Below are positions 1-56,800 of a DNA stretch of 64,000 bases, in pieces (position 1 is the first letter of the stretch; every line of letters begins with the position of its first letter). The DNA comes from a virus: UHGV virus genome UHGV-1350217, one strand, 5' to 3'. Both the position numbers and the translations under genes were made by a program. The notes below the pieces were generated by a model. The model saw nothing but the letters and a program-made list of their open reading frames with translations, did not search any database and was not told the DNA's origin.

Positions 1-1
1 A

Positions 2-550
2 GAGACTGCTGATAAGCTAGCTATACCTCAAGCATTTAGAGATGCCTTTGATGTATTAATGGTCAATGAAGGAACTCAATTACATAAAGCTTATAGTACA
101 GTAATCAAATACTCTGACTTACTAGCTAGATATTCTCTATGGAAGCATCTAATGGCTAATAAAGGTAAAGATGATAGTACTATCAAGACAGATACAGAAA
201 TATGGGATTTATTAGATAAGGCATTTATTAACTACTCTACACAAGACCATCCATATCTAAAATATGCTAATGATATAGGTTTTGCTAGATTTACCAAATA
301 TTGGATTAGAGCTCAGAACTATATAGCTAATGGTCTGCTGGGTACCAAACTAGCTACTACTATGCTATCACTAGCTACACAAGCTATGACAGGTATAAAG
401 ATAGAAAGCCCGTTGAATGTGATATTAGGCAAAAAGCTATTTGGCTATCATACATTTACATTGCCATTAGTAGATGATATAGCTGAGATAGTAGCTGACC
501 CTATTAATCTAGACAATCCATTGCAGTATATTAATAGCTACTTTAAATAA
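2..550 (+). CDS. hypothetical protein, 5'-partial (reading frame is open from the window edge)
   Basis: Frame 2 has no stop from position 2 and stops at 550, so the ATG at 59 is internal. It is convergent with the downstream minus-strand genes. Confidence 0.45.
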   Translation, partial: ETADKLAIPQAFRDAFDVLMVNEGTQLHKAYSTVIKYSDLLARYSLWKHLMANKGKDDSTIKTDTEIWDLLDKAFINYSTQDHPYLKYANDIGFARFTKYWIRAQNYIANGLLGTKLATTMLSLATQAMTGIKIESPLNVILGKKLFGYHTFTLPLVDDIAEIVADPINLDNPLQYINSYFK

Positions 551-1210: not shown

Positions 1211-1894
1211 TTAGAATGGTAAATTAGATGTATCTGTAGAAGGAGTCGATGTAGCAGCTTTAGAGCCGTTTAGGAAAGCTTCTACTTCCTCTTTAGTTAG
1301 ATATTTATCTATCTTATCTTGATGAGCATACTTCTCATCCTTGGCTAGTTGAGTACCTGCTGGAATAGATTTATCTAGTATTTCACTAGCGTGAACTCCA
1401 TCAGTAGTATAGAAATCTTGAATAACAAACTTCTTTTTAATCTGTCCATTATATTTGCTAATATCTCTTCTAATTCTAACTTTTACTTTAGCACCTTCAA
1501 AGTCTTGTAAGACTTTAATCTCTGGAGCTACTAGTTGCTTAGCAGCTTCAGCATTTTTTTTATAAGTAAAGTAAGGGTCTTGGTCTGTAGCTACTGCTAC
1601 CTCATCTACTTTAAGTAAATCTACTCCTAGAATAGTAGCTAGTCTAATAAAGATATTCCTCTCAAAGTTAGCTTTTCCATCGTTATTATCTAGCTTTAAT
1701 CCCCATAGAATACCTTTATTACCATTGTAGTCATATAGAAAGTTTAAGCTTCTAGCTTTATCAGCATTTCTACTTACTACTACTGCTTCTATAGTGATAT
1801 CATAGATACCACTCTCACTAATATAAGGACTAAACTCCTTAACCTTAACTGCTTCATTGATGTCTGCTACATCATTTTTACTAAATAATGCCAT
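1211..1894 (-). CDS. putative single-stranded DNA-binding protein
   Basis: Sits in a recombination module. The C-terminal tail ...TDTSNLPF resembles the acidic ...DDDIPF tail of bacterial and phage SSBs. No further motif was verified. Confidence 0.35.
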   Translation of the reverse strand: MALFSKNDVADINEAVKVKEFSPYISESGIYDITIEAVVVSRNADKARSLNFLYDYNGNKGILWGLKLDNNDGKANFERNIFIRLATILGVDLLKVDEVAVATDQDPYFTYKKNAEAAKQLVAPEIKVLQDFEGAKVKVRIRRDISKYNGQIKKKFVIQDFYTTDGVHASEILDKSIPAGTQLAKDEKYAHQDKIDKYLTKEEVEAFLNGSKAATSTPSTDTSNLPF

Positions 1895-1907: not shown

Positions 1908-2573
1908 TTATAGTTCGTCGATATTTACTACTCGATTATGTATATCAGCAATATATTTGTTAATATCAAACTCTTGCTGTTGCATAATCACCTCACTCTT
2001 GCATCCTACTTGTCTGCAAGGAAACTTCTTTAACGGGTCAGAGATAGCTACAATACGCTTACCTTTCTCAACCCCTAAATAAATAGCTTCATCAAATACT
2101 GACAACCATCCGTCATTATCTCTGAAGCTACCTTGAGCAGGTATTGTTATTCTCCCACTATCTCTGTCTGTTACTGTATGTGCTAAGCATACTATATTGA
2201 TACCTTTATCGCATAGAGTATTAAGATATTTGTTAAAGATATAGGTATCCTCTAGTATGCGTTGATGAGATTGATAGCCACTAAATGTCTTAGAATTATA
2301 ATGTACTAGTGATGTATAAAATCTAGTGATAGTATCAAATACTATGTATTCAGGTAATTTTTTAAACTTCTCTTTATAAGCTACTATCTTAGAATTACAC
2401 CAATCCATAAAATCATTAATGCCATTATATTCTTTAAGACTAGCTACGATAGTCTTAGGCATAGTATAAGGTTTTTCATCTAGATTAATTACTAAAGCAT
2501 TTTTTATATCCGCTGCTATAGTAGTTTTACCACTAGCTGCTGAACCACATATTAGAAACTTAATTCCATTCAT
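1908..2573 (-). CDS. AAA/RecA-like ATPase (Sak4-like recombination ATPase)
   Basis: Walker A motif GSAASGKTT near the N-terminus; about 220 aa; lies between the SSB candidate and a nuclease. Confidence 0.55.
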   Translation of the reverse strand: MNGIKFLICGSAASGKTTIAADIKNALVINLDEKPYTMPKTIVASLKEYNGINDFMDWCNSKIVAYKEKFKKLPEYIVFDTITRFYTSLVHYNSKTFSGYQSHQRILEDTYIFNKYLNTLCDKGINIVCLAHTVTDRDSGRITIPAQGSFRDNDGWLSVFDEAIYLGVEKGKRIVAISDPLKKFPCRQVGCKSEVIMQQQEFDINKYIADIHNRVVNIDEL

Positions 2574-2582
2574 TAACTCTCC

Positions 2583-3398
2583 TTAAAAGTTTATAGTTAC
2601 ATCAGGTTTTAGTCTATAGTCTGCATAGAGTAAATAAACTAATTCAGGTTTAGCTTTACCCATCAGGTAAGTATCTGCTATTAGATGAATATAATCATCT
2701 ATAAACCTCATATCATCATCTGTAATAGATTGAGTAATAGGTACTACTTTAGATGGATAATCTTTTAAGGGCTTACCTGTCTTTTCACTTATTCTACCCT
2801 CTATATTATGAGTTATCCAGACTATTCTAATGTTATTAACTTCTATACCTAGTTTTCTATATATCCAAGCATAAGTAAGCATTTGCCATTTATAATTATT
2901 AGGGATATATTCTCTAGGGCTAGACATAGAAGTAGTCTTGAAGTCTACTAGAGTATCCCCTATAATAGCATCAGCTGTTCCTCCTACATAGACATCATCT
3001 GTTAATTTTACAGCTATTCTATCCTCACTTCTTTCAGGAATACCAAAGAGATTTAAATACTCTATCAGTGCTTTACCCATAGGTTCTAATTGGCTTAATA
3101 TAAAAGCCTTATCTAAATCAGGAATAAGCATACTCATATCATCTACATAAGCTTTCAATTCATCTAAATTAACTTCTCTATTCTTGATATATCTCTCTGC
3201 TATTCTATGAACACAACTTCCTAATACTGTAGAAGTATTACCTATAAACTCACCAGATTCACCTAGAACTTGAGTTCTATACCATTCCCACTTTCTCTCA
3301 TTGAAGCCATATATCATACTAGGGGATATTCTAAAGGCATTATCAGGTATTAAATCAGCATAGTTCTCTTGATAATTCATAGATTTCATTTCTTGCAT
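2583..3398 (-). CDS. PD-(D/E)XK family nuclease (phage exonuclease)
   Basis: The segment GGTADAIIGDTLVDFKTT fits the D...(D/E)xK catalytic signature. Gene context is a recombination module. Confidence 0.5.
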   Translation of the reverse strand: MQEMKSMNYQENYADLIPDNAFRISPSMIYGFNERKWEWYRTQVLGESGEFIGNTSTVLGSCVHRIAERYIKNREVNLDELKAYVDDMSMLIPDLDKAFILSQLEPMGKALIEYLNLFGIPERSEDRIAVKLTDDVYVGGTADAIIGDTLVDFKTTSMSSPREYIPNNYKWQMLTYAWIYRKLGIEVNNIRIVWITHNIEGRISEKTGKPLKDYPSKVVPITQSITDDDMRFIDDYIHLIADTYLMGKAKPELVYLLYADYRLKPDVTINF

Positions 3399-3736
3399 AT
3401 AACACCTCTATCATCTATCTCATAGCCTAGAGTTTTAATTCTCTTTTCTAGGAACTTTTTATCAAACTTATTACCTACTAGAGTCATAATATAATCTATA
3501 GTCCTACTAGATAAATCTAATGCAGGTTGAGCTGCTAGAGCTATAGCATCATCTATTAGTTTCTGACCTAAGAACTCATCTGATTTAACATTGCTAGTAG
3601 ATAGATTTAATGGGGGTATACTAGCCTTAAAAGCTTTTAAATCCTCTAGTTGCTTAGACAATACAGATTCCTCTTTCTTTAGTATTCCTAGAATAATCTT
3701 TAATTCCTCTAGGTCTAATGTTATTTGAACATTCAT
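3386..3736 (-). CDS. hypothetical protein
   Basis: ORF in the operon, with overlapping stop/start codons on both sides. Confidence 0.45.
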   Translation of the reverse strand: MNVQITLDLEELKIILGILKKEESVLSKQLEDLKAFKASIPPLNLSTSNVKSDEFLGQKLIDDAIALAAQPALDLSSRTIDYIMTLVGNKFDKKFLEKRIKTLGYEIDDRGVICKK

Positions 3737-4908
3737 TTCAATCCTTTCTTTAAAGTTTTATAATCTCTCTTTTCACCTATAAATAGATGAGCTTTATAAG
3801 ACATTCTAGATATAGCTACATAGATAAGTCTTAGATACTCCTCTAAGCTAATAGGCTTATTGTAATGATTATATTTAGATGGAACTCTAAATAGCTGTTG
3901 ATATATATCTCTAACATCTACAAAGACTTCCTCTATAGTCATACCTTGAGCTTTATGGACTGTAGAAGCAAAGACCTGTTTAGGATGATATATCATATCC
4001 ATTTCTTGCCAGTATGCTTCAGGAGTCTTATATTGTTTCATATGATTTTCTAAAGCAGTCTTAGTCTTATAGACTTTGATTGGATAAGTATTATACTCAA
4101 ATGAAACTAACATTGAGTAATAATCAGGAAACTCATCTAGAGATATTATTTCAACTATATCTCCATTCCTAGCGCTTCCTAAGGGCTTATCTATAACTAG
4201 CATATCTCCTACACTAAACTTAGCTTGATTAATATTGGCATTATAACTATCTACTACTTTATTGCTATAGGCTAATATTCGTTTATGCCTATTAGAAGCC
4301 AAATAAGCTATGCAGAATGCTTTATGGTCATCATAGGCTATGATACCCTTAGGTAAGTTCTCTGATAGCTTGTAGAGTTTCCTAGAGGATATAGAATGCC
4401 TTAACGATTCTAACCACTCTTGAACCTCTGGATTATCTACTTGTCTCATATTCTCTACTAGAGTAATAACACTAGCATTACTAGGAATGCTAGCTTTAAT
4501 ACCTATAGCAGGTAATTGAGATAAGTCTCCTACTAAGATAATCTTTCTATAAGAAGCATTTAGAATAGCATTAAGGACATTTTGAGTAAGCATAGAGAAC
4601 TCATCTATAATAATAACCTTAGATACTAATGGCTCTCTTACTTGACTAAGATATTCACTAATACCATTACGAGTCATAACAAACCCTGCTATAGAATGAG
4701 TTGTATAGCATTTCTTACCTATTTTAGATTCTAGCAATGACTTAGCTTTATTAGTAGTAGCTGTAATGAAGCAGTCTTTTAAAACTTTAGCTAGTTCAGA
4801 TATGAGAAAACTCTTACCTGAACCAGCATTACCTAATATAGCTACTACTCTAGGTTTATCAGTTAGACATAGATTATAAGCCTCTTGTTGTAGTTTATTT
4901 AATTCCAT
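3733..4908 (-). CDS. SF1B DNA helicase (Dda/RecD-like)
   Basis: Walker A GNAGSGKS, Walker B IIIDEFSM, and a C-terminal TVHKAQG motif. Confidence 0.7.
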   Translation of the reverse strand: MELNKLQQEAYNLCLTDKPRVVAILGNAGSGKSFLISELAKVLKDCFITATTNKAKSLLESKIGKKCYTTHSIAGFVMTRNGISEYLSQVREPLVSKVIIIDEFSMLTQNVLNAILNASYRKIILVGDLSQLPAIGIKASIPSNASVITLVENMRQVDNPEVQEWLESLRHSISSRKLYKLSENLPKGIIAYDDHKAFCIAYLASNRHKRILAYSNKVVDSYNANINQAKFSVGDMLVIDKPLGSARNGDIVEIISLDEFPDYYSMLVSFEYNTYPIKVYKTKTALENHMKQYKTPEAYWQEMDMIYHPKQVFASTVHKAQGMTIEEVFVDVRDIYQQLFRVPSKYNHYNKPISLEEYLRLIYVAISRMSYKAHLFIGEKRDYKTLKKGLK

Positions 4909-15449: not shown

Positions 15450-16001
15450 TTAACTCTTAATTACTCTATCTACTACAGGTTTAATATTAGATAATAGTAA
15501 TATTATGATACTTTCAGTATTTACATTGCTATCACAATTAATTATATAATCTACACCACTATTAGTATTTATTCTAATAGTATTACCTAAATCTTTAACA
15601 CTCTCATCAGTTAGGTTTATAAAAACTGATTGAGTATCAAAAGAGTAATATACTCTAGGTATATAAGATGTCTCTCTTAATACTGAACTTAATTCTTGAC
15701 GTAGATAAGTTAACTCATCTTTTACATTTTCTAGATACTTACTAACTATATTAGATAGCTCATTAAACTTATCTGTTTTATGAGGATATCCAAATAATAC
15801 ATTATCATAGAAATTATTCACTGTATCTGTACCATTTGCTAATAATGGCTTAAATAAAAATAACATACCTCTTACAGCTTCTAACTTATCATCTAAAGCT
15901 AAATAAGATACAGTATTATCTACTCTCAATTTATCTAGTTTATAGATATCCTCTTTAAACTTCTCTGTTAATTGTATTATATTCATTAATGTGTCTCCCA
16001 T
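15450..16001 (-). CDS. hypothetical protein, tandem paralog 2
   Basis: See 14918..15439. Confidence 0.45.
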   Translation of the reverse strand: MGDTLMNIIQLTEKFKEDIYKLDKLRVDNTVSYLALDDKLEAVRGMLFLFKPLLANGTDTVNNFYDNVLFGYPHKTDKFNELSNIVSKYLENVKDELTYLRQELSSVLRETSYIPRVYYSFDTQSVFINLTDESVKDLGNTIRINTNSGVDYIINCDSNVNTESIIILLLSNIKPVVDRVIKS

Positions 16002-17038
16002 TGATTTTTACCAAACTTAGGTTCTCCGTGAACAGGGTATTTTAGACCTAATTCATAGCTAGTATCTATAAAACTCTGTTCTAATATTGAACCAAACTCC
16101 TCTTTAATTTCAGGTCTAATCTCGAAACTAATAGCATCGTGAACATTTAATATATAAGCAAAGTCTTTATCATACTTATACTTACTTCTTAAGATATTGT
16201 CTATATGAACTAATAAATACTTCATATAAATAGCTCCAGCAGATTGTAATAGTAGATTTAAAGCACTATGAGGACTTCTACAATAAAGCTTCCTACTATC
16301 TAAACCATAGAGATTATCTGCCATAGCTTTAGCGGTAGAATCCTCTACTAGGTCATTATAACCTTTAGTACCACTTTTAAATCTACTAGTAAGTTTAGTA
16401 GCATAGATAGTAGCTTTAATTAATTCGTCATCTACTGGAGCATATTGAGTTTTATTAACTGGATAGTAAAGCTTTCCATTAATCTCTTTACTTCTAGAGG
16501 ATATACTATCAGATGCTATAGCATATTCATCACTAGTATAATCAAACTCTTGACCTTTATAAAGCATATGACCTAGCTTAGTCATACCTGCACCATATAA
16601 AGTGGCATAAATAAAGATTTTAGCAGCATCTCTAGTATCTAATCCAGCTATTCTTTGATTTACAGTATGAACGTCAGTACCCTTAGACTTATCTCCGTGT
16701 TCTACAACTTTAGCATAGTAATAATTGTCGTATTTACTGAGATAATGACCTAACATCACTAACTCTAAAGCCGAAGCATCTACATCCACAAAAACTCTAC
16801 CTTCAGGAACACATATTAATTCTCTCATAAACTGGTCTTTACTAAGTTGTGTCATATTAGGGGAATTGTGTGTCATCCTTCCAGTATTCGCTCCGAGACT
16901 ATCTACTTTACCGTGTATTCTATGAGTATTGGGATTATAACAATTCATAAAACTACCAGCTCCAGTACATAGCATACTAAGGTCTTTATTAGTCTTTAGA
17001 TAGTCTTTTAATAAACTCTTAGCTTCGTTTAATTCCAT
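15986..17038 (-). CDS. DNA polymerase I (family A), C-terminal polymerase piece with palm and fingers
   Basis: Motif A DVDASALELVML, motif B RDAAKIFIYATLYGAG, motif C NVHDAISFE. TGRMTHNSPNMTQL matches the TGRLSSxDPNLQNIP region. Has its own AGGAG and ATG. Confidence 0.8.
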   Translation of the reverse strand: MELNEAKSLLKDYLKTNKDLSMLCTGAGSFMNCYNPNTHRIHGKVDSLGANTGRMTHNSPNMTQLSKDQFMRELICVPEGRVFVDVDASALELVMLGHYLSKYDNYYYAKVVEHGDKSKGTDVHTVNQRIAGLDTRDAAKIFIYATLYGAGMTKLGHMLYKGQEFDYTSDEYAIASDSISSRSKEINGKLYYPVNKTQYAPVDDELIKATIYATKLTSRFKSGTKGYNDLVEDSTAKAMADNLYGLDSRKLYCRSPHSALNLLLQSAGAIYMKYLLVHIDNILRSKYKYDKDFAYILNVHDAISFEIRPEIKEEFGSILEQSFIDTSYELGLKYPVHGEPKFGKNQWETH

Positions 17039-17292: not shown

Positions 17293-18354
17293 TCATTCGC
17301 CATCAGACTCATCACTAGAGTCAAACTTACTATCAAGTGTCTCAGCATTTACGACTATATTTCCTTTCTCAGTAAATACTACTGGTTTCCAATTATAGAC
17401 TCTCATTAATCTATCAGCTATTTGTTGTCTGCTAGACGGATTAAATACTTGAAGCTTTAACTTTTGATAAGTACAACCTTCAGTAGTGATAACATCTATA
17501 GTTCTAAAAGGTTTATCTCTTAGAATACCCTTATACTTTACAAATCTACCATTCTTGCCTATAGGGAGCTGATATTTAGGCGTAAAGATACCTAGAGGTT
17601 TAGTAGAGTCTAATATTAGCTTCTTAATACTAGACCTCTTAGGAATTATCACATCACCATCAGCTACTAGCATAGGAGGGAATTGCTTTCTAAGCTTTTG
17701 CTCTAAACCTATAGAGTGCATTTGTAATCTAGCTGATTCTTTTCTAGCTTTATCTATATCAAAATAACAACCATATTCCTGTTGGTCAAAGATAATAGAA
17801 GCTACTCTATATTCACACTCTCTGATAGACTTAGATGGGTATCTTTCTTTCTTGATTAACTCATTATAAAGCATATAAGTTACATCTACATCTCTTTTAC
17901 AATAAGTCATCATTTCTTGATTTAATCCATTAGCAAAATCGTCATAATCTAACTTAACTAAACCTAGTCTAAATCCAAAAGCTTTAATGCTATAACTACC
18001 ATATAAACTAGGAGGTATTACAGCTCTAGATTTATCAAACTCTGCTAATACGTCTTTAGGTAGAGTAAGCTTAGCATCTATTAGAGTATCTATTAGACTC
18101 TTATCTTTAATCTTACCTAATAGACGTTCTATAATAGGAATATCAAACTTACAGATATTATGACCTATAATTATATCAGCTGAATCTAGTATAGCCTTAG
18201 CTTCGTTTAATAAGCCATCTGAATTATTTACTTTTTCACAAGTATATATCTTAGTAGGATTACTATCTATCTTTAAGGCTATACACCATATATGCTCTAT
18301 ATTCTTTACTAAGTCCACTAATGGACTTGTTTCGATATCAAATACTACCTGCAT
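17293..18354 (-). CDS. DNA polymerase I (family A), N-terminal piece with 3'-5' exonuclease and the start of the polymerase domain
   Basis: Exo I motif VVFDIETS, Exo II motif GHNICKFDIPII. C-terminal ...SRQQIADRL...EKGN...NAETL matches the Pol I thumb entry. Ends in an acidic tail followed by TGA. Confidence 0.8.
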   Translation of the reverse strand: MQVVFDIETSPLVDLVKNIEHIWCIALKIDSNPTKIYTCEKVNNSDGLLNEAKAILDSADIIIGHNICKFDIPIIERLLGKIKDKSLIDTLIDAKLTLPKDVLAEFDKSRAVIPPSLYGSYSIKAFGFRLGLVKLDYDDFANGLNQEMMTYCKRDVDVTYMLYNELIKKERYPSKSIRECEYRVASIIFDQQEYGCYFDIDKARKESARLQMHSIGLEQKLRKQFPPMLVADGDVIIPKRSSIKKLILDSTKPLGIFTPKYQLPIGKNGRFVKYKGILRDKPFRTIDVITTEGCTYQKLKLQVFNPSSRQQIADRLMRVYNWKPVVFTEKGNIVVNAETLDSKFDSSDESDGE

Positions 18355-25942: not shown

Positions 25943-26013
25943 CTATATACTCCTTATAGAAAAAATTAAAGTGTCTAAGGGAATACACCCTAGACAATTT
26001 ACACTTCACAAGA

Positions 26014-26027
26014 GACGCCGAAGGCGC
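26014..26027 (-). promoter_or_regulatory. GC-rich mini-hairpin CGCC-GAA-GGCG; candidate hairpin promoter of the N4 virion-RNAP type, or a terminator at the end of the RNAP gene
   Basis: 4-bp GC stem with a 3-nt GAA loop in a very AT-rich 210-bp intergenic spacer, between the RNAP gene and the next operon. Confidence 0.3.
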
Positions 26028-26152
26028 TAACAATGTGATACTTATTTAAAAGCAAAATAAAGCTCTACAATTGATTGTAATGTCTAGATAGTATCTTTAT
26101 ACTACTAAACTATTATCGTCGATTATAGAGCTTGCTAGATATGTCTATGAGG

Positions 26153-28015
26153 CTAACAGATATAATAGCCATCTATGTTGTTTCTAATGGCTTGATATAT
26201 ATCCTCATTATAATTGCTCACTATGCCTGTTAGGTCAATATCCTTATCGGTTACTTGCTTTAGGATACTCTCTAGGATAGGCTCTTTATACAACCTAGCT
26301 AGTGTGTATCTATAGCACTTTCTCAATTCCTCGCAGTCATTGGCATATACACCAAATGAATCGTGAATTGGACTGACTACTATACCTCTCTCCCTTAGCA
26401 TAGTAATCACTTGCCTACATACCCAAGCATCTAAGCTGTGTACCAAATTTACTGCTAGACTTCTCCAGTTATCTTTAGATGCTTCATTATCCTCACACCT
26501 AATGTTGAAGCTAGGATACTTGATACTCTTATCAAGCTCCTTTACTTCTATCTTGTGAATCTTTGTAACTAGACTTGGAACATATGCATAATGTCCATCA
26601 GGTAATCTCCAACTATGATATAACTTAGGCTCATATAGACTATTGATATACTCCTTTAGTCTTATAGGACCACTAGCTAGTTCCTCTATGGCTTGTTCAA
26701 ACACTCCATAGTAGTTACCTAGCATTGTCTTAGGGGTAGCTACTGAGTTGTAGCCAGAAGTCATAATGCTAGCCTTTATGACATCTCTAGGCTTTGCTAA
26801 GTCTAGCTCTTTAGCCTTAGCCTCTAGCCAAGCATCTAAGTCATCTCTATCTCTAGGCTGTACTAGCTCTCTGACTCTATCATACACTAGGCTATAGAAG
26901 TCTTGTCTCTTAGTATTGCCTAATACATTCAATTTCTCCATAGCTTTCTCATCTCTAGTGATGACACTCATCAGCTGATAGCCACTAGCTGTAGCGTCTA
27001 GTCTGACTATCTGTCTAGACTTTCCAGTCTGTAAATAGTGCTTATACTCCTTGACTGCTTGTTTAAACAATAACTTATCACTAGCTGTATTAGTTAATTC
27101 CTCTAGACCTTTATCATCTAACAACTTCTCTAGGTTACTTCTACTCCATTGTAGTCTAGTCTCCCAGTTAGACTTGTCTAGACCATAGGCATTAGCTATA
27201 TCAATCAATAGCCATTCATTGCCTCTAGCATTGACTTCTCTATGCTGGTAGAATCTAAGCAGAGCTTTACCATATTCATTGGCTTGAACATTTATGCAGT
27301 AGCCTTTGCTATATATCCTTCCTCTCTTATCATAGTTCCATTCAAAGTAGAATGGTCTAGTAGAATACTCCTTAGCCATATCTCTTAGCTTAGTGTTAAA
27401 CTTGCTAATACCTTCACTACGATTGGTATCGTCTAGTGTACTATTGATGAAGTCTAGGTCTAGACTATAGGCTACACTAGAGAGATACTCTAGTACATCT
27501 AGGTTAATGCTAGAGTTATCGCTCAAAGCTAAGTGTTGATTAGCCTTATGTCCTAGTATATGTTCACTAGGGTCTGAATACTCTAGTGGTATTATGCTAG
27601 GTCTAAGGTCATAGTCCAATGGTAAGTCAGTCTCTAGTAATCCTTCTGCTATTAAATCAGCATTAGGCTTGACTAGATATGACATACTTCCCTTATCATT
27701 AGGGATACGATTAATATCGTATAGTCCGCAGTGCTGTAGCACTCCTAGTACTAAAGCACCTAGTTGTATATCCCATATCACTGACTTATCTTTGCTAGTG
27801 TAAATCATACCAGCTATGGACTGTAATACACCTCCATCTAATGGTAGAGTAGAGATAGCTTTGAATACTCTTTCTACTAGGTATTCAGGCATAGACTCTA
27901 TTATTTCTACCTGTTCATCTCTAGTAGTCCATCTGGATTTACTAGAGGAATAGCCTAGTATATATTGCTCTAAGGTTTTATACATACTAGACTTAATGAG
28001 TTCTAGTTTGTCCAT
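26153..28015 (-). CDS. single-subunit T7-like DNA-dependent RNA polymerase, N-terminally truncated mini form (N4 RNAPII-like, but as one polypeptide)
   Basis: DxxGR motif YDKRGRIY, motif A RLDATASGYQLMSVITRDE, motif B RDVIKASIMTSGYNS, motif C SPIHDSFGV. At 620 aa it is far shorter than the 883-aa T7 enzyme. Confidence 0.85.
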   Translation of the reverse strand: MDKLELIKSSMYKTLEQYILGYSSSKSRWTTRDEQVEIIESMPEYLVERVFKAISTLPLDGGVLQSIAGMIYTSKDKSVIWDIQLGALVLGVLQHCGLYDINRIPNDKGSMSYLVKPNADLIAEGLLETDLPLDYDLRPSIIPLEYSDPSEHILGHKANQHLALSDNSSINLDVLEYLSSVAYSLDLDFINSTLDDTNRSEGISKFNTKLRDMAKEYSTRPFYFEWNYDKRGRIYSKGYCINVQANEYGKALLRFYQHREVNARGNEWLLIDIANAYGLDKSNWETRLQWSRSNLEKLLDDKGLEELTNTASDKLLFKQAVKEYKHYLQTGKSRQIVRLDATASGYQLMSVITRDEKAMEKLNVLGNTKRQDFYSLVYDRVRELVQPRDRDDLDAWLEAKAKELDLAKPRDVIKASIMTSGYNSVATPKTMLGNYYGVFEQAIEELASGPIRLKEYINSLYEPKLYHSWRLPDGHYAYVPSLVTKIHKIEVKELDKSIKYPSFNIRCEDNEASKDNWRSLAVNLVHSLDAWVCRQVITMLRERGIVVSPIHDSFGVYANDCEELRKCYRYTLARLYKEPILESILKQVTDKDIDLTGIVSNYNEDIYQAIRNNIDGYYIC

Positions 28016-28016
28016 C

Positions 28017-28301
28017 TTAGTAGTTCTCCATTGTTATCTTTATATTCTCATCCTCTTGCTTTTCTGCTAGTATATAGAACTTACTATCTGATTTATGTAT
28101 ATTCTTGATAATCTTATTTAGTTCCTCTAATGTTGCTTTCAATGGATACTTTAATTTATCTAGATACAATGTATATCTACCAATATCTAGCTTATCAAAG
28201 TTTCCTTTAGCAGTATAGTAAAGTCTGCAATAATCACTAGCATAAGACTGCATAATACTTCTCATAAATCCTTCAACTAATAATTCAATAACACTTTGCA
28301 T
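28017..28301 (-). CDS. hypothetical early protein
   Basis: ORF abutting the RNAP start. Confidence 0.45.
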   Translation of the reverse strand: MQSVIELLVEGFMRSIMQSYASDYCRLYYTAKGNFDKLDIGRYTLYLDKLKYPLKATLEELNKIIKNIHKSDSKFYILAEKQEDENIKITMENY

Positions 28302-28345: not shown

Positions 28346-28567
28346 CTAGTTATTATCTCTCCACATTAGAGTTAGCCAGTCTTTTATATCACTAGCTAGT
28401 TCTCTAAACTCTATACCACTCTTGCCATAGAATGCTAGATTGTATGGAGCTACTAATAGTACATACATTATGAATATTAGTACTCCAATAGGAAATAGTA
28501 CACCTATGGATAGCAGAGCTACCCATAGTTTGCATATTAGTTTAATCATCTTTATATTCCTCCTCAT
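28346..28567 (-). CDS. small membrane protein
   Basis: Two hydrophobic helices: LICKLWVALLSIGVLFPIGVLIFIMYVLLVAPY. Confidence 0.4.
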   Translation of the reverse strand: MRRNIKMIKLICKLWVALLSIGVLFPIGVLIFIMYVLLVAPYNLAFYGKSGIEFRELASDIKDWLTLMWRDNN

Positions 28568-28925
28568 TCTGTAGTGATGGTTTCATCCTATCCTCCCATC
28601 GTTCACTACCATCATACTCTACACGTTCTATCCAGTCTGGACTATTCTTAAATGTTATCCATCCATCCCAGTATTGAGTACCATAGCCTGCGTAATATTC
28701 TAGATATTCATTAGGAATCTCATCCCAATTAATATCATCTGTACCCGAGTATACTTGTATACCTTCCTCATCAAAAGCTGTACCAAGATACTTTAGATAA
28801 TACTCGTCTACTTGTAGAGTACCTATCATTTCAATAGTCTCATCCTTGAAGTTTAGTTCATTAACACTCTTAGTCATCTTATTACTCCTTATAAATGCTA
28901 AGTAATTAGTCTCGATAGGAGACAA
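28542..28925 (-). CDS. highly acidic, aromatic-rich early protein (DNA-mimic or anti-restriction candidate)
   Basis: D/E/W/Y-rich composition, for example DEEGIQVYSGTDDINWDEIPNEYLEYY...EEEYKDD. Confidence 0.4.
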   Translation of the reverse strand: MSPIETNYLAFIRSNKMTKSVNELNFKDETIEMIGTLQVDEYYLKYLGTAFDEEGIQVYSGTDDINWDEIPNEYLEYYAGYGTQYWDGWITFKNSPDWIERVEYDGSERWEDRMKPSLQNEEEYKDD

Positions 28926-29114
28926 CTAGATGCTAGTGTATATCTATGGACAAACTTACAAATTGTTTATCTATGGATGGAATACACTAATAGAATTAAA
29001 ATAAGTACTAGTAATCCATCACGTCCATAGATTACTAGCAGAGCTACAACTTGAGTTTACGCAGGTGAGTAGTACCTCGAATGAGTTTAATGACATCTTA
29101 GGTCGATAGCTTAG

Positions 29115-29393: not shown

Positions 29394-29468
29394 CTTCCCA
29401 GTCTATCTATGGATGAAATTGTCATAGATGTAGTATTTGAATGATAAAAATCAAATAGAAAAAATTAT

Positions 29469-29490
29469 AAAGTAGAGGTTTTACCCTCTA
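29469..29490 (-). terminator. hairpin AGTAGAGG(N6)CCTCTACT flanked by A and T runs; intrinsic terminator candidate, possibly bidirectional
   Basis: 7-8 bp stem, with TTTTT on the plus strand and ATAATTTTTT on the minus strand. Confidence 0.35.
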
Positions 29491-29658
29491 CTTTTTGCTG
29501 ATTTTCTTAGGTGTTATATCTAAGATATCAGCTAACTCTAACGATATATTAGCTGCAACATCAGATGCTGCATCTTTTACATCAAGTTCTAGCCCTTGCT
29601 TTCTCAATCCCTTTTTAGCTAGGAATAGGAAAACACAGATACCAATAACATATTCCAT
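29488..29658 (-). CDS. small membrane protein; first gene of the minus-strand block
   Basis: Start reassigned to MEYVIGICVFLFLAKK, which has AGGAGG 5 nt upstream. The longer ORF-track start at 29757 has no SD. Confidence 0.4.
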   Translation of the reverse strand: MEYVIGICVFLFLAKKGLRKQGLELDVKDAASDVAANISLELADILDITPKKISKK

Positions 29659-29704: not shown

Positions 29705-30090
29705 CAACTAAAACTAAAGATAATGCTAACATAGCAAACTCCTTGAATTAATTTCACCTTACCAGAATTAAAGAATTACTTTTATCAGCTACCCTCAAGG
29801 GGGTAGACTGATGGATAAATTGCACAGTCTGGCTAGTACTACCCTCGTATTAAATTACATAAAATCTAATGCCTCACCTAAGATTCTTATAAGCTTGTAT
29901 CTTTTTACTTTTCTCTTATTGTTATCACTTACAGAGATAAATCAGAGGTATTTGAAAGCAAATACTTATGCTATGGTAGTTTGATAAGGTTTTTTGCTAT
30001 GTGATTTGACTTATAATAAAAATGCTTATAAGTTAGGTTTAACCTTCACTAAGTTATAATATGTGATATATCTCAAATTAAGGAGTAGTT

Positions 30091-50961: not shown

Positions 50962-53811
50962 ATGGCAGATTTAAATATAGGAGGAACTAGTGCTTTTCTA
51001 GGGCCTGCTGTTAATACTCAAATAAATCAGACTGATGTCAAAGGAACAGATTTTACTAGGACTATGCTACAGGCATTACAAGGTGCAGCTATAGCAGATG
51101 AAAATACTAGAAAGAATGACTTAGCTTCTGCTGAATTATTAGCAGCTAACACTGAAGCTAGTGAAAAAGCATATCAGTATGGACAAAATCTAGCAGCAGA
51201 CCAATTAGTGAAAGCTATAGGATTAGAGAATGCTGCATTGAATCCTTTTATTGGAACATATGCTAGAGCTAAACTAGATGATACTACTAAAAAGTTTCAA
51301 GAGGTTAGAAATACTAATAGAGATTTCAATGAAATAGCTGATTATGCTAAAACATATGGACATACTCCAGCTATAGATGCTATTCTTATTAATCGAGAAA
51401 ATGCTAAAAGAGGTCTAGCAGAAAGAGATATAGAATTAGCTAGACTAAGAGGTGATTCTAATGGTAATCCTACAACAGCTACTAGTACTAGTCTTACAGT
51501 CAAAGGAGGTTTACCTGATAATTTAAGAGTTCCTTCTTATATTAATTCAACTGATGGTAGTATTGACTTTAATAAAATTAATTCAATAATGTCAGGTAAT
51601 AACTCAGCTAATCGGCAAATGAATAGTGCCCTAGCTCCTACAGGTAATGATACTGCTACACAGAATGCTTCAGCTAGCCCTAGACTTAATGGTATTAGTG
51701 CAGCAGGTAGAGCAGCTGATGGATTAAGTAGAATACAAACTACTACTTCTACAGGTAAGTGTGCTACTTCAGTAAGAGAGAATCTAGAAAGAGCTGGATA
51801 TAGACTTCCTACGGGTAAAGATAGAACTAGTGCTTATATGTATGCTGATAATGGTCTATTAGAGGATATGGGATTTCAACGTATAGATAATGCTTATTCA
51901 CAGAATCCTCTTAAAGGAGATATAGTAGTTTTTGGTAAAACTGATAAACATCCTGATGGACATATAGCTATGTTTGATGGTAATAACTGGGTTAGTGATT
52001 TTAGACAACGAAGCATTAATCCATATATAGATAAAAAGTCAGCAGGACAGATGTCATATTTCAGAGACCCTAGAGCAATAGATGATAATCCTGATTTTGC
52101 TAAGTTTCAACAACAAGCTATGAATCCTATCAATCAATTTAAACAAGCTCTAGGATTAAATCCAGAGCCTACAGCAAGTGAGAGGGCTACAGATAGTACT
52201 AACATACCTTCTTACTCTCAGAATGGTTTAGACGCTAAGGAAATGGCTTCTAAAGCACTATCTACAAATCAGTCTAAAGCTGTTAGTTTTAATAATTCTT
52301 TAGGAGTAGATACAGAAAAGAATCCTGAAACTGGTTTACCTATGAATGATGTAGCTGGTAATCAACTAAGTAATGCTATTCAACAGACTAGTAAACTTAA
52401 AGGACAGAGTCTTTTTATTTCTGAGGATGATAAATCTCAAGATAATAAAATTATGGTAAATCTAGGAGATAAGATAGGTGTGTTTGATAATACTCCTGAT
52501 GGACTAAATCAAGCTGAGCAAATGAAAGCTAATGTAGGTATAGGTAGACCATCTATGATAGAAGCTATTACTACTAAAGCTCAAATGTCCTATGGTAAAG
52601 AACCTATGCAGACTTATGAGGATTATGTTAATAAAAATATAGATAATAATCCTGCATTATATGGAAGCAATATACACGTATCTAAAGCTATTACAGATAA
52701 AGGTAATCTAGATAGTATAGCTAGTATAACTGGCTTACCTATAGTTCAATATGATGATAATGGAAACCCTATCGAAGATACTATAGCTTATCCTCCTAAT
52801 ATGTCTAATAGACTAGCTAATATAGGACATACTGATACAGCTAGTGTAGAAAGAGCTCAGAAAGCTGCAGATGACTTAAAAGAGTTCTATCAACAATCAG
52901 GACAAGACTATACTATAGGAAAAAATCATCCAAATATTAGAATAAACAATGATGGTAGCTTAAAAGAAGGAAATCCTAATAATATGACTAAAGAGGAAAG
53001 AAAATATAATAAGATGGTTCAAACTGAGGATTTTCTAACTGACCCTGCTATATCTGGTGCTAATAAGATAATTCAAACTACTAAAGATATGCCGATTATA
53101 AAAGATAAAGGGGATAATACTGAGAAATATACCTCTTTAGTTCAAAAGGACTTAGCTGAAGGCAATAATGAAAAGATAATTCTAGCTGGTATTACTCTGC
53201 ATACTCTAGGTATAGAGGATGCTGATGGTATGAATGCTGATGCTATGGATATGCTATATAGAGTAATGACTGAAGATAAAACACCTACTGAAGCTCTAGC
53301 TTCTGGTAAGCTAGGTATTTTTAAAGATGCTAAAGCTCAAGAGTTAGTTAAGCTATTACCTAAAGCTTATAAAGAAATAGCAGCTTATGCAGCTGATAGT
53401 AGTGGTTTTCTATTTAGTAAAAAAGGCTCTAGAAGTGAAGGTATGATACCTATATTCTTAGACGATAAAGGTAATTTTAGAGTTAATAGATTTAAGATGG
53501 ATACACCCGAGAATAGAAAGTTTGCTGAGGATAATGGAGTACCTGTAGCTAATTCATCTAAGCATTTGGCTTTAGTTCCTAATCAACTAGGTTATAAATT
53601 AGAGAGTTTTCTTAGAGGAATATCTGACAAATATGCTAAAGAAGCTTTTGCTAAATCTACTCATCAAAGAAAATATATTTCAGACGAAACAAGAGATAGA
53701 ATGAAACAAGATGATGCTCAATTCTTACTAGATAATAATGGAGATACTTACGATTGGTTAGCTACAACAGGAATGAGTAAAGGGGAATACTTAGAGAATA
53801 TGCAACGCTAG
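50962..53811 (+). CDS. internal virion protein with a CHAP peptidoglycan-hydrolase domain (949 aa)
   Basis: GKCATSVRENLERAGY...GDIVVFG...GHIAMFDGNNW carries the conserved Cys and His of CHAP/NlpC-P60 domains, at about 51750-52010. Confidence 0.5.
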   Translation: MADLNIGGTSAFLGPAVNTQINQTDVKGTDFTRTMLQALQGAAIADENTRKNDLASAELLAANTEASEKAYQYGQNLAADQLVKAIGLENAALNPFIGTYARAKLDDTTKKFQEVRNTNRDFNEIADYAKTYGHTPAIDAILINRENAKRGLAERDIELARLRGDSNGNPTTATSTSLTVKGGLPDNLRVPSYINSTDGSIDFNKINSIMSGNNSANRQMNSALAPTGNDTATQNASASPRLNGISAAGRAADGLSRIQTTTSTGKCATSVRENLERAGYRLPTGKDRTSAYMYADNGLLEDMGFQRIDNAYSQNPLKGDIVVFGKTDKHPDGHIAMFDGNNWVSDFRQRSINPYIDKKSAGQMSYFRDPRAIDDNPDFAKFQQQAMNPINQFKQALGLNPEPTASERATDSTNIPSYSQNGLDAKEMASKALSTNQSKAVSFNNSLGVDTEKNPETGLPMNDVAGNQLSNAIQQTSKLKGQSLFISEDDKSQDNKIMVNLGDKIGVFDNTPDGLNQAEQMKANVGIGRPSMIEAITTKAQMSYGKEPMQTYEDYVNKNIDNNPALYGSNIHVSKAITDKGNLDSIASITGLPIVQYDDNGNPIEDTIAYPPNMSNRLANIGHTDTASVERAQKAADDLKEFYQQSGQDYTIGKNHPNIRINNDGSLKEGNPNNMTKEERKYNKMVQTEDFLTDPAISGANKIIQTTKDMPIIKDKGDNTEKYTSLVQKDLAEGNNEKIILAGITLHTLGIEDADGMNADAMDMLYRVMTEDKTPTEALASGKLGIFKDAKAQELVKLLPKAYKEIAAYAADSSGFLFSKKGSRSEGMIPIFLDDKGNFRVNRFKMDTPENRKFAEDNGVPVANSSKHLALVPNQLGYKLESFLRGISDKYAKEAFAKSTHQRKYISDETRDRMKQDDAQFLLDNNGDTYDWLATTGMSKGEYLENMQR

Positions 53812-53882: not shown

Positions 53883-56800
53883 ATGTATAATGAAAATGAT
53901 GAAAATCAACAAGAATATAATAAGCCTACTTCTAAAGATAAATCTAGCAGTATCTCTTTGATGAATACTCTCTCTGATGCTTTTAAGCAAAATGGAGGGG
54001 TACCTCAAGAGCTAGAGAACTCTACAGTTAGAAACTTCTTTAATACTAATTATGCTCCTATATTCAAGCCAGCTAATCAAGTTAAAGCTGAAAGAGCTAC
54101 AGAAGTTGTTAAAGATATATTACAACGTCAAGGATTTCCTTCTACTCCAGAGGATGATGCAGCAGCTAGAATAGCAGCAGATACCACATATGCTCCTCAA
54201 TATCAACAACTAGAACTTAATGAGCAAAGATTAGATTTAATTTCTCAAAAGAATAAGCAAGATTTAGACAATGCAGAGCATATGAATAAACTAAAGCTAC
54301 TAGATGCTCTAAGTCCTCAAGCATTAGCTGATATAGGTTATGGAAGTAAAGGTAGCTACTCTATGTCTCCAGAGGAAAGAGCAGCATATGTTAGAAAAAT
54401 GACAGCTGACCCTTATAAACAAGCTATGCAACTAGCTGAAATAAAAGCTACAGATGATAGACTTAAAGCAGCTAGAGGTCTAACTATTATCAATGACTTA
54501 AATGATAGGTTTAAAATAGAACAACAAAGGGAAGCTCTCAACAGAGATAAAGAGAATCTTACTACTGATTTAGCTTCATTAGCTTCATATAATAACTATA
54601 TGAAAGAGATTAATCCTGCTTTCACTTCTACTACCTTTGAGACAGGTAATCCTCTAGAAAAAAATCCTGATTATTCTATTACTGCTAATATTGCAGACCA
54701 ATGGGGAGAGTTCTATAGAGATACTTTAGGTGTAGGACAACTAGCTAGTGAAGGTGCTAGTGATTTAGCTAAGCTAGCTGTTAGAAAAGCTAAGAACTGG
54801 AATAAATCTGTATCTGATATAGCTACAGAAGTTTTACAAGAGGATTATGAGCTAAATAAACAGAGACAAGCAGGTAAATCTACAGGTCATCCTATAGATG
54901 ATTTTCTAGCTGGAGCTATTAGAGGTTCAGGTAAAGCAGCTAAAGACAGAAATGCAGTTAATAGATTTACTATTGATTTAATGAAAGCTGATTATGATGC
55001 TTCTGATGGAGCATTATCTACTGTTAAAAATATAGGAGGAGATTTACTAGGAGCTTCAGGACAATTTATAGCTGGTTCAACTCCTGAAGTACTTAGTGCT
55101 TTGGTTCCTGGAGGACTAGTAAATAAAGCTACAGAGAAAGCTGCTGCTAAATATGGTGAAAAAGTAGCTATGGAAGCAGCTGGTAAAGATTTAATTAATG
55201 CTACTAGAGCTACTACAGAAGCTCTTGATAAACTTAAATCTACAGCTCCTAAAGCTATGACTGACAAAGTAATTGCTGAAGTTCCTAAGAGAAATGAACT
55301 CTTTAAAGCTATGCAAGATAAGTTTAATCAAGACTTTAGAGCTATTAAAAAGTCTACAGATTTAACTAGAAAAGAGAAACTAGAGAAACTTCAAGCTTTA
55401 AGACGTCAAAGAAATGTAGAACTTACAAGTACAGAGAATAATAATCTAATCAAAGCCTATGCTAAAGCTACAGATGCTGAGAAAGCAAGAATGCTATCAG
55501 CTTATAAAGAGTCTTTAAAAGAGAATGGCTTTAAAGAAGCTAATGCAGCAGCATTTAGAAGTGAATATGCAGCTAATAAAGCTTTACATACTAATGCTAT
55601 ATCTAAAGTAGAGGAAGCTAATAAAAAACTAGCTGATACTATGGAGAAATATCATATAGACCCTACTACTAGAACTATCTCTGATAAAGGTAAAGAACTA
55701 TTAGGTAAAGAGTTTGCAGCAGAGTTTCAAGCTAATAGTAAAAGATATAGTCCATTAGCTAATGCCTTTAGAACTCTTACCCCTACTGCTGCAGTAGTCG
55801 CTGAAAGAAATGCTAGACAAGCTATGGCTAATAGATTAGGTATAGATGAAAGAGACTTAGTTCAAGTAGTAGATAGTGGAGACTTTATCTCTAATATGCC
55901 ACTAGCATATGTCTATTCAGCTCTAAATACACTAGAGGCTACTAACCTACTAGAAGGAGCTTTTAAAGGAGCAGGACTTAAAGATATATTTAGTACTACT
56001 AAGAAGTTCCTTACAGGTGTAGACGACACTACTATAGCTGCTACTAAGCAAGCTACTAAAGAAGCAGCTTCTAGGACTATGAAAGAAAGAGCATCTGAAC
56101 TAGCTACTAGACTCAAAGATAAGCCATTAAAAGAAGTTAGAGATATAACTACTAAAATGTTTGGTCTAGCTTCTAAGACTTTAAAAAGTACTGCTAAAGT
56201 AGCAGGTAAAAGAGGTCTATATGGTTTTGCTAATGAAGGAACTGCTGAGTTCTTACAAGAGTATTCAGAGCAATTACAGCAAAATGGCTTTAATCTACAA
56301 GAGATATTAAATCCTCAAACACTAGAACAAGCTAAAGAAGCAGGATTAATAGGAGGTCTAACTGGAGGAACTACAGGTACTCTAAGTACTGGAAGTCATC
56401 TAGTTAGAAATGTCTATGATAAAGGTATTAAACCTCTAGCTACTTCTCTTAAAGATAAATGGCTAGAGCATAAAGAAGCTAAAGCAGATGAAAAGACTGA
56501 AGCTACTAGAACTACAACTAACTATGAAGCTTCACATAACAATGATGGTTCTGTTATAGCTAATACTACTAGTCCAGCTAAAGTAATTGAGGATAGTCTA
56601 AATACTAATCTAAATAATAATACTATTAAGAAAATAGCTTCAGAAGCTCAAATAAGACAAGCTAAGAAAAACCAAGATTTCTTTGATAATGATAAACCTA
56701 AGACTAAAGCAGATATAGATAGACATACTGATGACTTAATGCAAGAGTATAAATATGCTCCAGAGAAAAGACCAGAAGTAAGAGATGCTGTAGTAAATAC

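Follow-up and report, generated by a model that had tools for sequence, protein, structure and literature searches.

A single-chain RNAPII-type RNA polymerase in the early region of an uncultured, human-associated N4-like phage genome

Results

Polymerase gene and catalytic motifs

The 64,000-nucleotide stretch of the virus genome UHGV-1350217 analysed in this study (the window) carries on its minus strand, at positions 26153–28015, a gene with an ATG start for an RNA polymerase (RNAP) of 620 amino acids (aa). It is a single-chain enzyme of the type of phage N4 RNAPII, which is made of two gene products, gp15 (RNAP1) and gp16 (RNAP2), and we found that it is an unsplit, one-chain ortholog of that heterodimer. 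The protein matched the Pfam family PF00940 (RNA_pol) with 115.9 bits (E = 2.7e-33, cut-off 22), and all four catalytic motifs of the T7 family were present. The DxxGR motif, D229-K-R-G232-R233 in the context WNYDKRGRIY (27317–27331, minus strand, as for all motifs of this gene), aligned to T7 D421–R425. Motif A, RLDATASGYQ with the catalytic D340 (26975–27004), aligned to the T7 D537 region, motif B, R410-x3-K414-x7-Y422 (26750–26788), to its T7 counterpart, and motif C, PIHDSFG with H551-D552 (26351–26371), to T7 H811–D812. In an alignment of 49 sequences with homologs at 27–88% identity, D229, R233, D340, R410, K414 and Y422 were invariant, and H551/D552 were present in the consensus.

Compared with the 883 aa of T7 RNAP, the enzyme is 263 aa shorter, and its DxxGR motif lies 192 residues closer to the N-terminus than T7 D421. 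A preliminary description, made from the sequence alone, had read the gene as a catalytically complete, N-terminally reduced T7-family RNAP of 620 aa in a single polypeptide. It had placed DxxGR at 229–233, motif A at ~340, motif B at 410–422 and motif C at 551–552, with a shortfall of ~260 aa against T7 RNAP and DxxGR ~190 residues nearer the N-terminus, and our data agreed with each of these values. The Asp residues of motifs A and C, on which that description had made its reading depend, are D340 and D552.

The description had also considered that the gene might be a fragment of a longer frame. Upstream of the ATG there are only 6 further open codons before a stop at 28034–28036, so the open reading frame (ORF) is not a fragment of a longer one, and the depositor's gene call has the same boundaries. 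More than 100 full-length homologs (27–92% identity) all keep the frame open, which indicates that the ORF is not due to chance. An identical 620-aa product was encoded on five independent contigs from human-associated metagenomes (up to ~67.5 kb), which ruled out a fragment or a frameshifted-fusion artefact. Full-length versions at 84–92% identity were found on many further contigs, and the identical protein is listed in NR as "MAG TPA: DNA directed RNA polymerase [Caudoviricetes sp.]".

Collinearity with gp15 and gp16 of N4

In a phmmer search against the PDB, the best match was N4 RNAP2 (gp16; E = 1e-23), followed more weakly by T7 RNAP (6e-17); N4 RNAP1 (gp15) was also matched, over the segment of the polymerase directly before the RNAP2 match. 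By BLASTP, residues 132–255 aligned to gp15 123–262 (of 269) and residues 267–609 to gp16 8–399 (of 404). The gp15 match was extended by hhalign to residues 119–261, aligned to gp15 107–268 (E = 9e-16), and the best tblastn matches of the polymerase were all in N4-like phages. Because these matches are strictly collinear, the polymerase corresponds to gp15 and then gp16 in one uninterrupted chain. The gp15 alignment ends at residues 255–261 and that of gp16 starts at 267, which places a linker of aa 256–266 (27218–27250, minus strand) at the position of the N4 gp15/gp16 split. The ORF is continuous across this linker, with no two-gene split between DxxGR and motif A. The comparability with the heterodimeric N4 RNAPII that had been claimed earlier is supported by this collinearity, and the proposed comparison with T7 RNAP, gp15 and gp16 was significant for all three.

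Fold and comparison with known polymerases

The AlphaFold2 model of the polymerase (predicted local distance difference test score, pLDDT, 86.6) has the right-hand fold of palm, fingers and thumb, with a Foldseek TM-score of 0.75 to T7 RNAP; its top structural match was a mitochondrial RNAP. With the family profile, hhalign aligned residues 138–590 to T7 269–851 (E = 4e-30). There is no sequence counterpart to the first ~268 residues of T7 RNAP, the region that comprises the AT-rich recognition loop and the intercalating-hairpin subdomain on the T7 domain map; a ~137-aa N-terminal domain stands in their place. As only T7 269–851 was aligned, the loss of most of the T7 promoter-binding N-terminal domain was also correctly described before. 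The thumb is shortened, about 25 residues corresponding to T7 347–405 (~60 residues) in the hhalign alignment, and several T7 finger insertions are absent. Structure prediction, which had been proposed for finding the retained subdomains, indicated that two are kept. The first is a folded N-terminal domain of aa 1–118 (27662–28015, minus strand), modelled as winged-helix-like with helices and a beta-hairpin at 99–117, and without sequence counterpart in T7 RNAP or gp15. The second is a long beta-hairpin at aa 478–520 (26456–26584, minus strand; model strands 482–490 and 502–512), which hhalign placed in the specificity-loop region of T7 (~735–781).

By sequence and profile, the closest relative is N4 RNAPII (PDB 6DT7), with the same four motifs, the same truncated thumb and the same reduced N-terminal domain; the latter two features have likewise been described for N4 RNAPII (PMC4496689). 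The setting is shared as well, namely the early region of an N4-like genome with a giant gene of the virion RNA polymerase (vRNAP) type and an N4-type single-stranded DNA-binding protein (SSB). However, N4 RNAPII consists of two chains of 269 and 404 aa rather than one of 620 aa, and the two enzymes are only 27–29% identical. A ~70-aa insertion of gp16 (about residues 256–326) is absent from our enzyme, the first ~118 aa of which have no detectable sequence similarity to gp15 1–106. Moreover, N4 has gp1 and gp2, which have no homologs in the genome region examined.

Other polymerases are more distant. T7 RNAP (Autographiviridae) is ~16–22% identical to our enzyme, which differs from it in the length, thumb, finger insertions and missing N-terminal region described above, and a T7-type promoter family was not seen. 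The virion RNAP of N4 (gp50; mini-vRNAP, PDB 3Q0A and 9PNQ) is a different paralog, the window's own version of which is an ORF of ~4,680 aa. The mitochondrial RNAPs (yeast Rpo41 and human POLRMT) are eukaryotic, about twice as long, carry pentatricopeptide-repeat and N-terminal extensions, and show 14–18% identity.

Distribution of single-chain and split forms

HMMER, run exhaustively over 1.84 billion cluster representatives, gave 87 matches below 1e-30. The best 150 cluster representatives comprised 87 single chains that run across the split site (451–729 aa), 51 gp16-type subunits that start at query position ~241–267 (their residues ~5–10 falling on query 264–267), and 10 T7-sized proteins. 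Of the 80 top-ranking IMG/VR loci, about 60 had one polymerase ORF, 17 were split at query positions 255–265 with spacers of 3 nt to 2.6 kb, and four were split elsewhere (query position ~422 or ~520). A one-chain mini-RNAP is not rare; it is common in metagenomes. The preliminary description had called the enzyme an attractive one-chain minimal polymerase. The one chain stands, but its size is nothing special, since 87 of the 150 are single chains and many are smaller than 620 aa.

The splits outside the N4 position are associated with inserted genes. The ~0.9-kb inserts at query position ~520 encode homing-endonuclease-like proteins of the NUMOD3/GIY-YIG type, found also in a chromosomal copy in Campylobacter vicugnae, and those at ~422, inside motif B, encode an HNH-like protein, as judged by inspection. 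Endonuclease-type genes interrupt the polymerase at one or the other of these positions in loci L036 (3157–3861), L038 (11690–12403), L012 (11859–12551), L039 (2279–2926) and L041 (2323–2925). In such relatives, the two polymerase ORFs presumably assemble in trans. TerL and a gp69-like gene lie within 10 kb of the polymerase operon, in divergent orientation, in 51–52 of the 80 loci, whether the gene is split or not, and all of these are therefore regarded as N4-like genomes.

Cultured N4-like phages have the split enzyme; most of the top tblastn hits extend over two annotated genes, some of the records being unannotated or listing other features. In Enterobacter phage vB_Ecl_SABI (locus L011), the RNAP1-like (1165–2145) and RNAP2-like (2158–3432) genes are in frame with a stop and three codons between them, and the tblastn alignment passes unbroken through their boundary.

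A neighbour-joining tree of the polymerase core (375 columns, 74 taxa, T7-size outgroups) separated the RNAPII-type clade from the outgroups with 100% bootstrap. Our enzyme belongs to a clade of 24 members (83% bootstrap) that is free of N4-type splits and separate in the tree from every split form. Because the split forms are not monophyletic (0% bootstrap), with a large unsplit clade nested among them, the tree does not fix how many splits or fusions took place or which way they ran. Outgroup parsimony favours a putative unsplit ancestor. We suggest, tentatively and with more doubt than conviction, that the ancestral unsplit form may have been kept here and that the N4 heterodimer may be derived from it via homing-endonuclease insertion; the compact chain, in which a winged-helix-like N-terminal domain and the specificity loop are kept, would then possibly be a self-sufficient, promoter-specific RNAP smaller than any characterised single-subunit RNAP.

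The opposite course, a secondary fusion in which an ancestor with the two-gene RNAPII of N4 would have lost the stop codon and the spacer, appears unlikely to us. One mutation would be enough for it in an arrangement such as that of vB_Ecl_SABI, and both the lack of monophyly of the split forms and the unsplit clade nested among them would fit with it. On the other hand, the T7-size outgroups are unsplit, the 24-member clade holds no N4-type split and stands apart from the split forms, and splitting has recurred at other sites through the insertion of endonuclease genes.

Genome context

With a GC content of 31% and no tRNAs, the window is organised in two divergent gene blocks, and the genome is syntenic with N4 throughout. 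It is a 64-kb slice of a circularly permuted genome of ~67.4 kb, cut inside a giant gene, since positions 2–547 encode the last 182 residues of that gene. The rightward block follows the late order of N4, with gp69-like, TerL, gp67-like, appendage, portal, scaffold-like and major head protein genes, then genes for proteins of 1228, 163 and 949 aa, and finally the giant frame from 53883 to the end of the window. The portal matched PF23899 at 1e-138, and its nearest cultured relatives are N4-like phages of Alteromonas, Klebsiella and Vibrio (37–47% identity). Downstream of the polymerase, the leftward block follows the middle order of N4, with DNA polymerase, Dda-like helicase, primase (phrog_2135, E = 6e-90), exonuclease, Sak4-like and SSB genes. 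The last of these, at 1211–1894 (minus strand), encodes an N4-type SSB (phrog_743, E = 4.6e-9) in the position of N4 gp45. The hallmarks of Schitoviridae-like phages (TerS-like/TerL, gp67-like, portal, major capsid protein, vRNAP and DNA polymerase) are thus found in N4 order. A near-DNA search with 20 kb against cultured phages gave no match, leaving the phage without a near relative in culture. A profile search of the genome contigs with the RNAP alignment gave no match either.

Two further features of these blocks were observed. The family-A DNA polymerase is encoded in two ORFs, 15986–17038 and 17293–18354 (minus strand), which hold the exonuclease (353 aa) and polymerase (350 aa) parts separately, with a spacer of 254 nt; a comparable split occurs in a Campylobacter relative. 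The 949-aa protein (50962–53811, plus strand), in the position of N4 gp51 and directly 5' of the giant gene, contains a CHAP/endolysin-like segment (residues ~213–453), which is consistent with a cell-wall-degrading ejection protein.

Locus L012 belongs to the chromosome of Campylobacter vicugnae (CP144915.1, 1255767–1277383, in a 1.7-Mb record), where a 35%-identical polymerase lies in an N4-like divergent layout; Thy1 and a family-A DNA polymerase in split form are encoded in the region as well. The locus is suggestive of an integrated N4-like provirus and of a host range in the Campylobacterota for the phage group. Uncultured human-gut N4-like viruses, proviruses included, have been catalogued with Campylobacterales among the predicted hosts (PMC10654107). 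RNAP1 and RNAP2 are nowhere mentioned in this 2023 catalogue of uncultured N4-like viruses (PMC10654107).

Giant gene in the vRNAP position

The companion of the polymerase gene in an N4-like genome, a giant virion-RNAP gene, has a counterpart here in a gene of ~4,680 aa in the position of gp50. Its first ~3,372 codons form an open frame at 53883–64000 (plus strand) in synteny with N4. Its last 182 codons and the stop lie at 1–550 (plus strand), as identified by tblastn with the giant C-terminus of the relative L003 (97.8% identity), and an ORF of 163 aa at 59–550 is its C-terminal tail. About 1,127 codons, including the HELxH block, lie outside the window. In relatives (e.g., L003 3050–17158), the gene encodes ~4,680 aa, ~1,200 aa more than N4 gp50, and the distance of its polymerase-like motifs from the N-terminus is ~940 residues greater than in N4.

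The giant ORF gave no match in PHROGs, Pfam, PDB sequences or a tblastn search of cultured phages. A profile of 11 diverse Schitoviridae vRNAPs did match three full-length copies of the giant protein (E = 1.4e-8, 5.7e-8 and 4.8e-6), and 200 shuffled sequences reached at most 2.3 bits. This match covers a metalloprotease-like block of the C-terminal domain with the HELxH motif (giant residues ~3600–3780). In addition, hhalign of the giant protein against vRNAP gave three collinear, individually marginal matches, namely the T/DxxGR-NxQ block (TSVNERMSVVGIMNQQANKKLR vs TRVGRMQMLGKYNPQSAKLVR), motif B (RKISKPILQLFNYGSG vs RGIAKNPLTITIYGSG) and HELxH. By eye, motif A (IEIDGQSFGP vs VEADGVTNGP) and a candidate motif C (NNFDAIT vs KIFDGMN) were recognised, the latter with the same spacing from motif B. 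These single-subunit-RNAP-like motifs lie on the plus strand at 60633–60698 (T/DxxGR-NxQ), 61332–61364 (A), 61779–61826 (B) and 62613–62639 (candidate C). Counted from the start Met at 53883, their putative key residues are D2484 in motif A, K2637 and Y2645 in motif B, and D2916 in candidate motif C.

A 4-sequence alignment of the giant segment, used as a profile against the PDB, found nothing significant, and hhalign of the segment against mini-vRNAP was not significant (E = 0.22). Widening the family by IMG/VR searches with the segment, its alignment and the upstream 949-aa protein, and by a protein search, returned the same near clade only. Judging from the profile match and the order of motifs, we conclude that the giant gene is a divergent vRNAP homolog. 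A polymerase core in the giant protein is probable, not proven, because single-sequence structure prediction failed.

Early unit, small ORFs and non-coding elements

The polymerase gene is the last of a leftward unit of ~3.6 kb (about 29.75 to 26.15 kb) beside a divergent control region, which agreed with the early-region location claimed before. The 210-nt gap 3' of the polymerase (25943–26152, minus strand) contains a GC hairpin, GCGCC-TTCG-GCGTC, and a terminator-like hairpin with a T-run at 25996–25972; it is likely the end of the early unit.

A 94-aa ORF (28017–28301, minus strand) is separated by a 1-nt spacer from the start codon of the polymerase; it is a positional partner in the nearest clade only and had no Pfam or PHROG match. 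The other early ORFs encode a membrane-type protein of 57 aa (given in the ORF list as 89 aa with a GTG start), a protein of 83/92 aa, a hydrophobic basic protein of 73 aa, and a strongly acidic protein of 111/127 aa (28542–28925, minus strand; isoelectric point 4.1, net charge about −18). The sole match of the acidic product was PHROG 3972, of unknown function (E = 8e-6), and it could be a DNA mimic or an anti-host factor. Beyond the nearest clade, the first early ORF alone is conserved, in 11 loci.

It had been proposed that the small neighbouring ORFs could be cofactors of the polymerase. This found no support: comparison of the early ORFs with phrog_4099 (gp2) and phrog_5020 (gp1) and BLASTP to gp1 and gp2 gave no significant match, Drc not being compared directly. 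Moreover, no upstream partner ORF of the polymerase was found to be conserved across clades, and iterative profile searching with hidden Markov models gained no homologs of the small early ORFs.

Two non-coding blocks are near-invariant, 92–100% identical across four genomes in which the coding and flanking intergenic DNA has diverged, and each is single-copy in the window. Block 1 (29730–29860, minus strand), just 5' of the first early ORF, contains a bulged 11-bp hairpin, ATCAGTCTACCC-CCTTGA-GGGTAGCTGAT (DNA fold z = −2.3), as defined in the four-genome alignment; the identity of this block is 95–98%. Block 2 (29395–29500, minus strand) contains a terminator-like hairpin followed by the palindrome ATCTATG / CCATAGATAG. 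An Rfam search of 25.8–30.2 kb gave no match. Both blocks are candidate early promoters or regulatory sites/operators.

Three exact copies of TCCATAGATA were observed within 470 bp 5' of the early small ORFs (28941–28950, 28968–28977 and 29404–29413, minus strand), with an inverted partner in a hairpin at 29006–29040. Neither TCCATAGATA (23 vs 14.4 expected) nor GAGGGTA (6 vs 4.2) is enriched window-wide. A direct-repeat search of the whole window revealed no promoter-like family and no T7-like promoter family, and sigma-70-like sites were at chance level (38 found vs 36.7 expected).

Discussion

In this study, we found that the 620-aa enzyme is an RNAPII ortholog in one chain. We consider it likely that it serves as the middle-phase RNAP of an uncultured, human-associated N4-like podophage, in a cycle modelled on that of N4. 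N4 RNAPII has been assigned to middle transcription by genetics (PMC4496689), and by analogy our enzyme is most likely a middle-gene transcriptase. Its gene stands last in a short unit next to the divergent region, as would fit an early-gene product. In the proposed cycle, the giant vRNAP-homologous virion protein would be injected with the DNA and would transcribe the early genes leftward from about 29.75 to 26.15 kb. Once made, the 620-aa enzyme would transcribe the replication block further downstream in the same direction (25.9 to 1.2 kb).

The invariant residues, together with the fold, point to standard two-metal catalysis in the palm (D340, D552), with R410/K414/Y422 of the O-helix and DxxGR as an RNA-binding motif. 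Because the region of the AT-rich recognition loop is missing and the thumb is short, intrinsic recognition of duplex promoters would probably be weak, as in N4 RNAPII, and a melted or single-stranded template together with phage accessory protein(s) would be needed. The timing, template preference, cofactor need and genes transcribed are all inferred from N4.

Several observations weigh against this role. No gp1, gp2 or Drc-like cofactor homolog was found among the early ORFs, and no repeated middle-promoter motif was found, so that a cofactor-dependent mechanism on single-stranded DNA rests on analogy only. The enzyme retains the specificity-loop-like hairpin and the folded winged-helix-like N-terminal domain; it might therefore have intrinsic promoter recognition. 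As for the giant protein, its significant match is the C-terminal HELxH block, its polymerase core has only marginal collinear profile matches (E 0.015–0.07) and motif inspection, and the single-sequence AlphaFold model of residues ~1991–3110 was unusable (pLDDT 36.6).

In an alternative scheme in the style of T7, the 620-aa enzyme, made from host-RNAP transcripts, would be self-sufficient and promoter-specific and would transcribe most of the genome from duplex promoters of its own, the giant being an ejection or structural protein only. The retained hairpin and N-terminal domain, the lack of a gp2- or Drc-like cofactor and the polymerase core of the giant protein, which is not significant at profile level, all lean in this direction, and the near-invariant non-coding blocks 5' of the early genes could be promoters for any RNAP. 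Nevertheless, we consider this scheme quite improbable. The synteny with N4 is maintained throughout, the giant gene is vRNAP-homologous with recognisable motifs (A, B and T/DxxGR-like) that follow the expected order, and the enzyme clusters with N4 RNAPII and apart from T7-type enzymes. In addition, the window holds no repeated T7-like promoter family, and its sigma-70-like sites occur only at the level expected by chance.

T7 and mitochondrial RNAPs are able to make primers or R-loops for DNA replication. A function mainly as such a primer or R-loop maker, or an inactive relic, might be read from the gene's place directly upstream of the replication module and from the mitochondrial RNAP as top structural match, but it is highly improbable, as the catalytic residues do not vary among more than 45 diverged homologs, a dedicated primase is present, and N4 genetics give the orthologous enzyme to middle transcription (PMC4496689).

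With middle-phase transcription as the preferred role, the kind of enzyme and the type of genome are known, and what is new is the unsplit form, which is widespread rather than singular. A 2015 review from the N4 laboratory stated that essentially every vRNAP-bearing phage has a heterodimeric RNAPII, and called the origin and advantage of the split unclear (PMC4496689). No account of unsplit RNAPII-type enzymes from N4-like phages came up in the searchable literature.

Within the "single-subunit" RNAP family, N4 RNAPII is the textbook example with two subunits. Since the whole N4 layout and a vRNAP homolog occur here with one chain, the N4 strategy does not require the split. Dozens of metagenomic clades are also single-chain, and the splits with endonuclease inserts suggest how the split arose. 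A small polymerase of this kind would have value as a tool only if it is specific for promoters on duplex DNA, a property that N4 RNAPII lacks. The natural single-chain enzymes of 450–700 aa are available for biochemical and structural comparison, and if the reading of an unsplit ancestor is true, the question of why N4 RNAPII is a heterodimer would become directly testable.

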